Shown here: positions 1 to 474 of the stretch, piece by piece | Layout of the letters: each line of letters starts with the position of its first letter | Position numbering within the stretch: position 1 is the stretch's first letter | Source of the DNA: Escherichia coli | Lineage (GTDB): Bacteria; Pseudomonadota; Gammaproteobacteria; Enterobacterales; Enterobacteriaceae | Length of the DNA: 64,000 bases | Reading direction: 5' to 3' (one strand) | NCBI RefSeq assembly: GCF_050920415.1 | Contig: NZ_CP169310.1 | The notes under the pieces: model-generated | What the model saw: only the letters and a program-made list of their open reading frames with translations | The model's database searches: none | Told to the model about the DNA's origin: nothing | Program-made: the position numbers and the translations under genes

Positions 1-474
1 GTTTTCCACCGGGGAATGGGCTGACGGTATCCATAAAGTGACGAACCTTTTTCAACAACTGCCACATTGAACGGCACTGGTGATTTCGGGTTATTGTCTC
101 ATGAAGCGCCTGCCACAACCGTTCGACATGATTCACCCACGGCGAGTAAACTGGCTGATAAATCCCCCTGAACTTCGGGTTTGCTTTCAGCCAGCGCAAC
201 GTTTCACGGCTTTTGTGGATGATGTAGTTATCGACAATGAGCGTAATCGTCTTTGCCCGCCGGTATGTCGCCTTCAGATGTTTTAACAGTCTGATAAATA
301 AGGATGAACCTTTACTGTTTCCACCAATGTAGCTGACTTTACCCGTACCGCTGTGCAGTGCACCGGCAAGATAATACTTTTCATTCTGGCCCGGTGTGAC
401 AACGCGCTTTTGCTGCCCGCGTAACTGCCAGTCAGCACCGATTTTCGGGTTGAGATGAATATCCACTTCATCTT

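Follow-up and report, generated by a model that had tools for sequence, protein, structure and literature searches.

Insertion sequences of the IS630 family duplicate a TA dinucleotide at their target and prefer CTAG sites. In the Tn3 family, intramolecular replicative transposition produces an adjacent deletion, which leaves one copy of the transposon with perfect ends and unmatched flanks. Both families are represented at the locus described here, which lies at the left edge of a 64,000-nucleotide stretch of Escherichia coli DNA (contig NZ_CP169310.1), referred to below as the window. The Tn3-family member has been reported under the name Tn2501 as a likely intact element of 3,815 bp, common to the plasmid pCFSAN004181P at 99.5% (PMC7175801). 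The host of that plasmid is E. coli GB089, an ehxA-positive, LEE-negative STEC O168:H8 from ground beef. Positions 1-8474 of the window are base-for-base identical to positions 127829-136302 of the plasmid record (NZ_CP012499.1), in which PGAP has placed a pseudogene, CO57_RS00660 (127809-128303), described as "IS630 family transposase; incomplete; missing N-terminus". Within 1-474 this pseudogene and the window have the same sequence, with no difference. Further right, the window is 18 bp longer than the plasmid record, the excess lying somewhere between window positions 8474 and 63190, and window positions 63190-64000 align to 191000-191810 of the record, off the expected offset. The 18-bp excess may mean that the window derives from a sibling plasmid or from another version of the assembly; positions 1-474 are unaffected by it. 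Considered as a whole, we are highly confident that positions 1-474 are best explained as an inert, minus-strand IS630-family remnant with a history of insertion and deletion that we infer below. The stretch is a routine IS remnant already annotated in RefSeq and not a new gene or element.

The initial annotation had left positions 1-474 unassigned, with the suggestion that they might be pieces of a gene that had been disrupted, or of a further mobile element extending past the end of the window. Translation of the minus strand in its three frames revealed one frame, from 472 to 2, that runs through 157 codons with zero stops, and stops interrupt both of the remaining minus-strand frames. A stop-free run of at least 157 codons arose in 10 of 5000 shuffles of the same 474 bases. 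The translated search that the initial annotation had proposed identified this frame (2-472, minus strand) as the C-terminal part of an IS630-family transposase, equivalent to residues 181-337 of a protein of 343 aa. The 157-residue translation matched the IS630 equivalog model NF033545 of NCBIfam with an E-value of 1.6e-39 (136.1 bits, cutoff 100), and the alignment covered positions 150-298 of the 299 in the model. It likewise matched the Pfam domain DDE_3 with an E-value of 2.3e-21 (76.6 bits, cutoff 28.6), covering profile positions 6-142 of 146. Based on the coverage of these two profiles, the fragment corresponds to the C-terminal catalytic half of the enzyme. Inspection of the translation located DEVD, VDNY and NHVERLW motifs, in which we take the catalytic residues to lie. 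In a BLASTP comparison, the frame (residues 181-337) shared 99% identity with the transposase of an intact copy carried by the same plasmid, and a megablast search of 1-474 against complete E. coli genomes returned 100% matches on large plasmids, each annotated "IS630 family transposase".

The 472-to-2 frame exits at the left edge and has neither a start nor a stop inside the window, and it is consequently absent from listings of open reading frames. What such a listing does contain are two short ORFs, one with a GTG start at 80-286 on the plus strand (68 aa) and one with an ATG start at 283-471 on the minus strand (62 aa). The coordinates given for them in the initial annotation are correct; the gene model built on them, in which the two ORFs were themselves the gene fragments, is wrong. 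The ORF at 80-286 is antisense to the transposase frame and aligned with it codon for codon, while the register of the ORF at 283-471 is shifted by one base relative to that frame, its ATG (469-471) being formed within the true-frame codons GAT-GAA beside the transposon boundary. When the true-frame codons were permuted 2000 times, the five other frames contained a complete ORF of 62 aa or longer in 763 trials and one of 68 aa or longer in 569. Because ORFs of equal length arise by chance in 28-38% of codon permutations, we regard both as shadow ORFs and not genes. That either or both represent real small genes is scarcely credible. Each does possess a start and a stop codon, and one weak promoter-like match is present on each strand, but the number of such matches is what shuffled sequence yields; a scan of window positions 1-1300 for promoters and terminators gave counts equal to the shuffle expectation. 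Moreover, neither ORF matched any family in Pfam or NCBIfam, neither was annotated by PGAP, lengths of this order are frequent among the permutations, and the frame that both ORFs overlap shares 94-99% identity with known transposases.

Comparison with an intact copy on the same plasmid defined the anatomy of the remnant. This intact copy lies 6 kb leftward (L001 1691-2842); it is 1152 bp long, encodes a transposase of 343 aa, has short, imperfect terminal repeats and lies between two TA dinucleotides. Alignment with blastn matched window positions 474 to 1 to IS positions 639 to 1112 at 99.6% identity, with 2 mismatches between the remnant and this copy. The window thus holds, on the minus strand of 1-474, the first 474 bp of a remnant whose total length is 514 bp (IS positions 639-1152). 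The remaining 40 bp fall to the left of the window; they supply the terminal repeat and the end of the coding sequence, namely its last 6 codons and stop. Extending the sequence upstream, also proposed in the initial annotation, recovered these last 40 bp, and the suspicion that a mobile element runs off the window was accordingly borne out: the 3' part of the IS continues 40 bp past the left edge. Missing from the remnant are the first 638 bp of the IS, and with them the left terminal repeat, promoter and start codon as well as the N-terminal DNA-binding half of the transposase. When the window was searched by blastn for the rest of the IS, there was no match outside 1-474. Against the intact copy in p2RM9088, the remnant showed 100% identity over 519 bp, and with zero mismatches to that copy it has not decayed since its truncation.

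The outer end of the remnant adjoins C-TA within a serine-resolvase gene, which the IS630 insertion interrupts after 45 codons (L001 7825-7962, immediately beyond the left edge of the window), and the empty site of the intact copy, as seen in pCFSAN004178P_02, reads CTAG. Membership of the remnant in the IS630 family is therefore indicated by a transposase match above the profile threshold, by the presence of the DDE catalytic domain, and by the TA target duplication with its CTAG preference, the remnant's other end being gone. In place of a complete element of approximately 1.1-1.2 kb with two terminal inverted repeats, the locus retains 514 bp with a single end; because of this, the remnant is classed as a fragment of a member and not as a functional member. 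Beyond the cut resolvase gene lie a 3.8-kb S6-family peptidase gene and then the second, intact and inverted IS630 copy, an arrangement that resembles a composite transposon. Independent mobility of this IS630-bracketed protease module was considered and rejected: the module is flanked identically in p2RM9088, pN96-2 and pCFSAN004181P, which points to shared ancestry and not to separate transposition.

The right-hand limit of the remnant is set by a Tn2501-type transposon of the Tn3 family, which occupies 475-4289 (3,815 bp, plus strand) and truncates the IS630 copy. Its 38-bp terminal inverted repeat, GGGGTCCGCTTGGAAAACGGAAAATATCCCACGCTAAG, is perfect at 475-512 and recurs inverted at 4252-4289; these are the only two copies in the window, with 0 expected by chance. 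In the blastn alignment, IS630 homology ends exactly at 474, the base preceding the left repeat (475-512, plus strand), and 475 is the first base of that repeat. The transposon boundary as originally drawn, at 474/475 where the perfect 38-bp repeat begins, is thus accurate, and the idea of a disrupted gene is substantiated in that an IS630-family transposase gene is cut at this boundary. Between its repeats the transposon encodes tnpR (521-1111, minus strand; an ORF of 196 aa, called a recombinase by PGAP) and tnpA (1272-4256, plus strand; an ORF of 994 aa, called a Tn3 family transposase by PGAP). Terminal repeats of 38 bp beginning with GGGG, a large TnpA and a serine resolvase are all features of the Tn3/Tn2501 group. 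A 5-bp direct target duplication is lacking. Read directly, the left flank is ATCTT (470-474) and the right flank ATATA (4290-4294), so the two flanks do not form the direct repeat that a simple insertion would leave, and the DNA beyond the right end of the transposon is not IS630 sequence. These unmatched flanks indicate a later rearrangement, not non-membership in the Tn3 family. Many other E. coli plasmids carry the element at about 98% identity, and in strain OkiPb01717 it is present on four replicons.

Two further features were observed at and beyond the right end of the transposon. A hypothetical gene at 4253-4603 (minus strand) reads into the right inverted repeat and ends there; PGAP calls a 291-bp gene at 4253-4543, and the gene annotated at the corresponding position of pCFSAN004178P_02 (L006 5841-6254) is 414 bp long. 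By this positional match, the hypothetical gene was probably also truncated by the transposon or by the deletion. Nearby, a 258-bp segment at 4611-4868 is bounded by the inverted repeats GGGGTCAGTTTGGATAT and ATATCCAAACTGACCCC. It is only this segment that matches more than 2000 plasmid records from Escherichia, Klebsiella, Enterobacter and others at 87-98%, and its 5-bp flanks are unmatched (TATAT vs TACCT). It looks like a miniature Tn3-derived inverted-repeat element.

To follow the origin of the truncation, a reconstructed plasmid was used, which consists of pCFSAN004181P with record positions 136,303-190,999 filled from the window. It contains one copy of the transposon, two intact IS630 copies and the remnant, together with divergent IS630-family scraps (70-82% identity) and two degenerate sites resembling the inverted repeat. 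Neither a second transposon copy nor the missing 638-bp 5' part of the remnant was found in it. The two IR-like sites (NZ_CP012499.1 109664-109701 and 110903-110940; L007 9664-9701 and 10903-10940) are on the plus strand, carry 7-8 mismatches to the Tn2501-type repeat and bracket a uilS lactonase gene and a TraX gene fragment. In pCFSAN004178P_02, which is free of the transposon at this site, the backbone is continuous. Its match to the plasmid stops at the CTAG of the intact IS630 and resumes exactly at the right end of the transposon; the 426 bp of backbone between those two points are absent from the plasmid, which has approximately 10.6 kb in their place. In order, this insert consists of the intact IS630, an AraC-family gene, a hypothetical gene, the 3.8-kb S6-family peptidase gene, the resolvase fragment, the inverted IS630 remnant and the transposon. 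A degenerate solo Tn3-family repeat is present in pCFSAN004178P_02 (L006 5577-5614), with about 31 of 38 bases equal to the Tn2501-type repeat; it lies one base past the CTAG occupied by IS630, within the missing 426 bp, which suggests that an earlier transposon left a relic here.

A three-step history would account for this arrangement. An IS630 copy would first have inserted at a CTAG within the resolvase gene and, with the second, inverted copy 6 kb away, would have bracketed the protease (S6 peptidase) module. The Tn2501-type transposon would then have landed nearby. Finally, a transposon-adjacent deletion would have removed the 5' part of the IS630 (638 bp) and about 426 bp of plasmid backbone, leaving one transposon copy with unmatched flanks. 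Both the order of these events and the mechanism of the deletion are deduced from the arrangement of the sequence, with a transposon-adjacent deletion as the likeliest cause, and the comparator pCFSAN004178P_02 may be non-ancestral. Alternatively, the transposon could have entered an intact IS630 by simple insertion, with the other half of the IS subsequently moved away, either by an inversion or by recombination (homologous or at res sites) between two copies of the transposon, and persisting elsewhere. Recombination between two copies does yield unmatched flanks as well, and the element is multi-copy elsewhere, as on the four OkiPb01717 replicons. The reconstructed plasmid nevertheless has its single transposon copy, and IS630 positions 1-638 occur in it at high identity only within the two intact elements. 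A synthetic query for the reciprocal junction (the transposon right end, ATCTT and the IS630 5' part) was also searched against 20,395 E. coli and 72,556 plasmid records, and the transposon right end was joined to the IS630 5' part in 0 records of both collections. This alternative, in which the other half persists, is thus unlikely. Recombination between two transposon copies with later loss of one of them would produce the same unmatched flanks and may have occurred instead. Against the three-step history, a synthetic query for the ancestral form, with the resolvase fragment next to a complete IS630, found no such form, only its IS part being matched. We retain the transposon-adjacent deletion as the likeliest cause of the truncation.

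With respect to expression, the remnant is without a start codon, a left end, the N-terminal DNA-binding half or a promoter of its own above chance. An Rfam search of window positions 1-1300 at a permissive E-value gave zero matches, so there is no known RNA gene in that region. Judged by its sequence, the remnant is unable to transpose or to make a transposase and is a scar inherited unchanged; it probably has no function. Some residual expression is conceivable, as the remnant carries a whole DDE_3 domain, shows no decay and is identical to an intact allele. In its strongest form this would have a truncated transposase co-transcribed from tnpR, translated by read-through or from an internal GTG, and acting as a DDE-only, trans-dominant modulator of the two intact IS630 copies. 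The tnpR gene does lie directly upstream on the same strand, with its TAA stop (521-523) in frame with the remnant. Sixteen sense codons across the transposon repeat separate this stop from the remnant frame (473-523, minus strand). That strand has no terminator-like site between the two, and the remnant is free of inactivating mutations. However, there is no start codon among those 16 codons and no in-frame ATG, GTG or TTG with a ribosome-binding site ahead of the GTG at 464-466, and a frame shared with tnpR occurs by coincidence in 1 of 3 cases. A product devoid of the N-terminal DNA-binding half would have no known route to the IS ends, and the remnant has been split by an IS66-family element in two plasmids without apparent consequence. 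We consequently consider such a modulator very improbable and continue to view the remnant as an inert scar.

The junction between the IS630 remnant and Tn2501 is old enough to be common to at least 13 plasmid records, the carriers of which range from STEC virulence plasmids of more than 200 kb to plasmids of 80-86 kb. The two plasmids with a split remnant, which belong to the 80-86 kb group, are p2RM9088 (crow, USA) and pN96-2 (Tibetan pig, China), in which the IS66-family element arrived later and divided it in two (L004 7092-9862 and L005 7092-9862). The Tn2501-type tnpA has an internal stop in both of these plasmids. As an exact, inherited feature, the 474/475 junction can serve as a marker for tracing plasmid lineage, and the unmatched flanks of the transposon would record a deletion of approximately 1 kb in the mosaic beside the FII replicon. 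The significance of 1-474 itself is small: with the stretch recognized as an ordinary, annotated IS remnant, the question of its identity is closed.

Set against described Tn3-family transposon-adjacent deletions, the locus likewise shows a single transposon copy with perfect ends, no 5-bp duplication and missing DNA between the flanks, and one flank here would be the new target, inside IS630. It differs in that the deletion is read against a relative that may not be the ancestor and in that the original flank is indistinguishable. Among IS630-family insertion sequences of Enterobacteriaceae, the closest relatives with a name, going by PGAP labels, are ISSpu2 and ISEc33: over residues 181-337 the transposase frame of the remnant is 96% identical to an ISSpu2-family and 94% identical to an ISEc33-family transposase. 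Unlike these elements, the remnant consists of the 3' 514 bp only and has lost its left end together with the start codon and N-terminal half. Compared as DNA, the intact sister copy shares about 93% identity with ISSpu2-type copies and about 82% with ISEc33-type copies. It is therefore a distinct close relative of both, for which PGAP gives the family name only.
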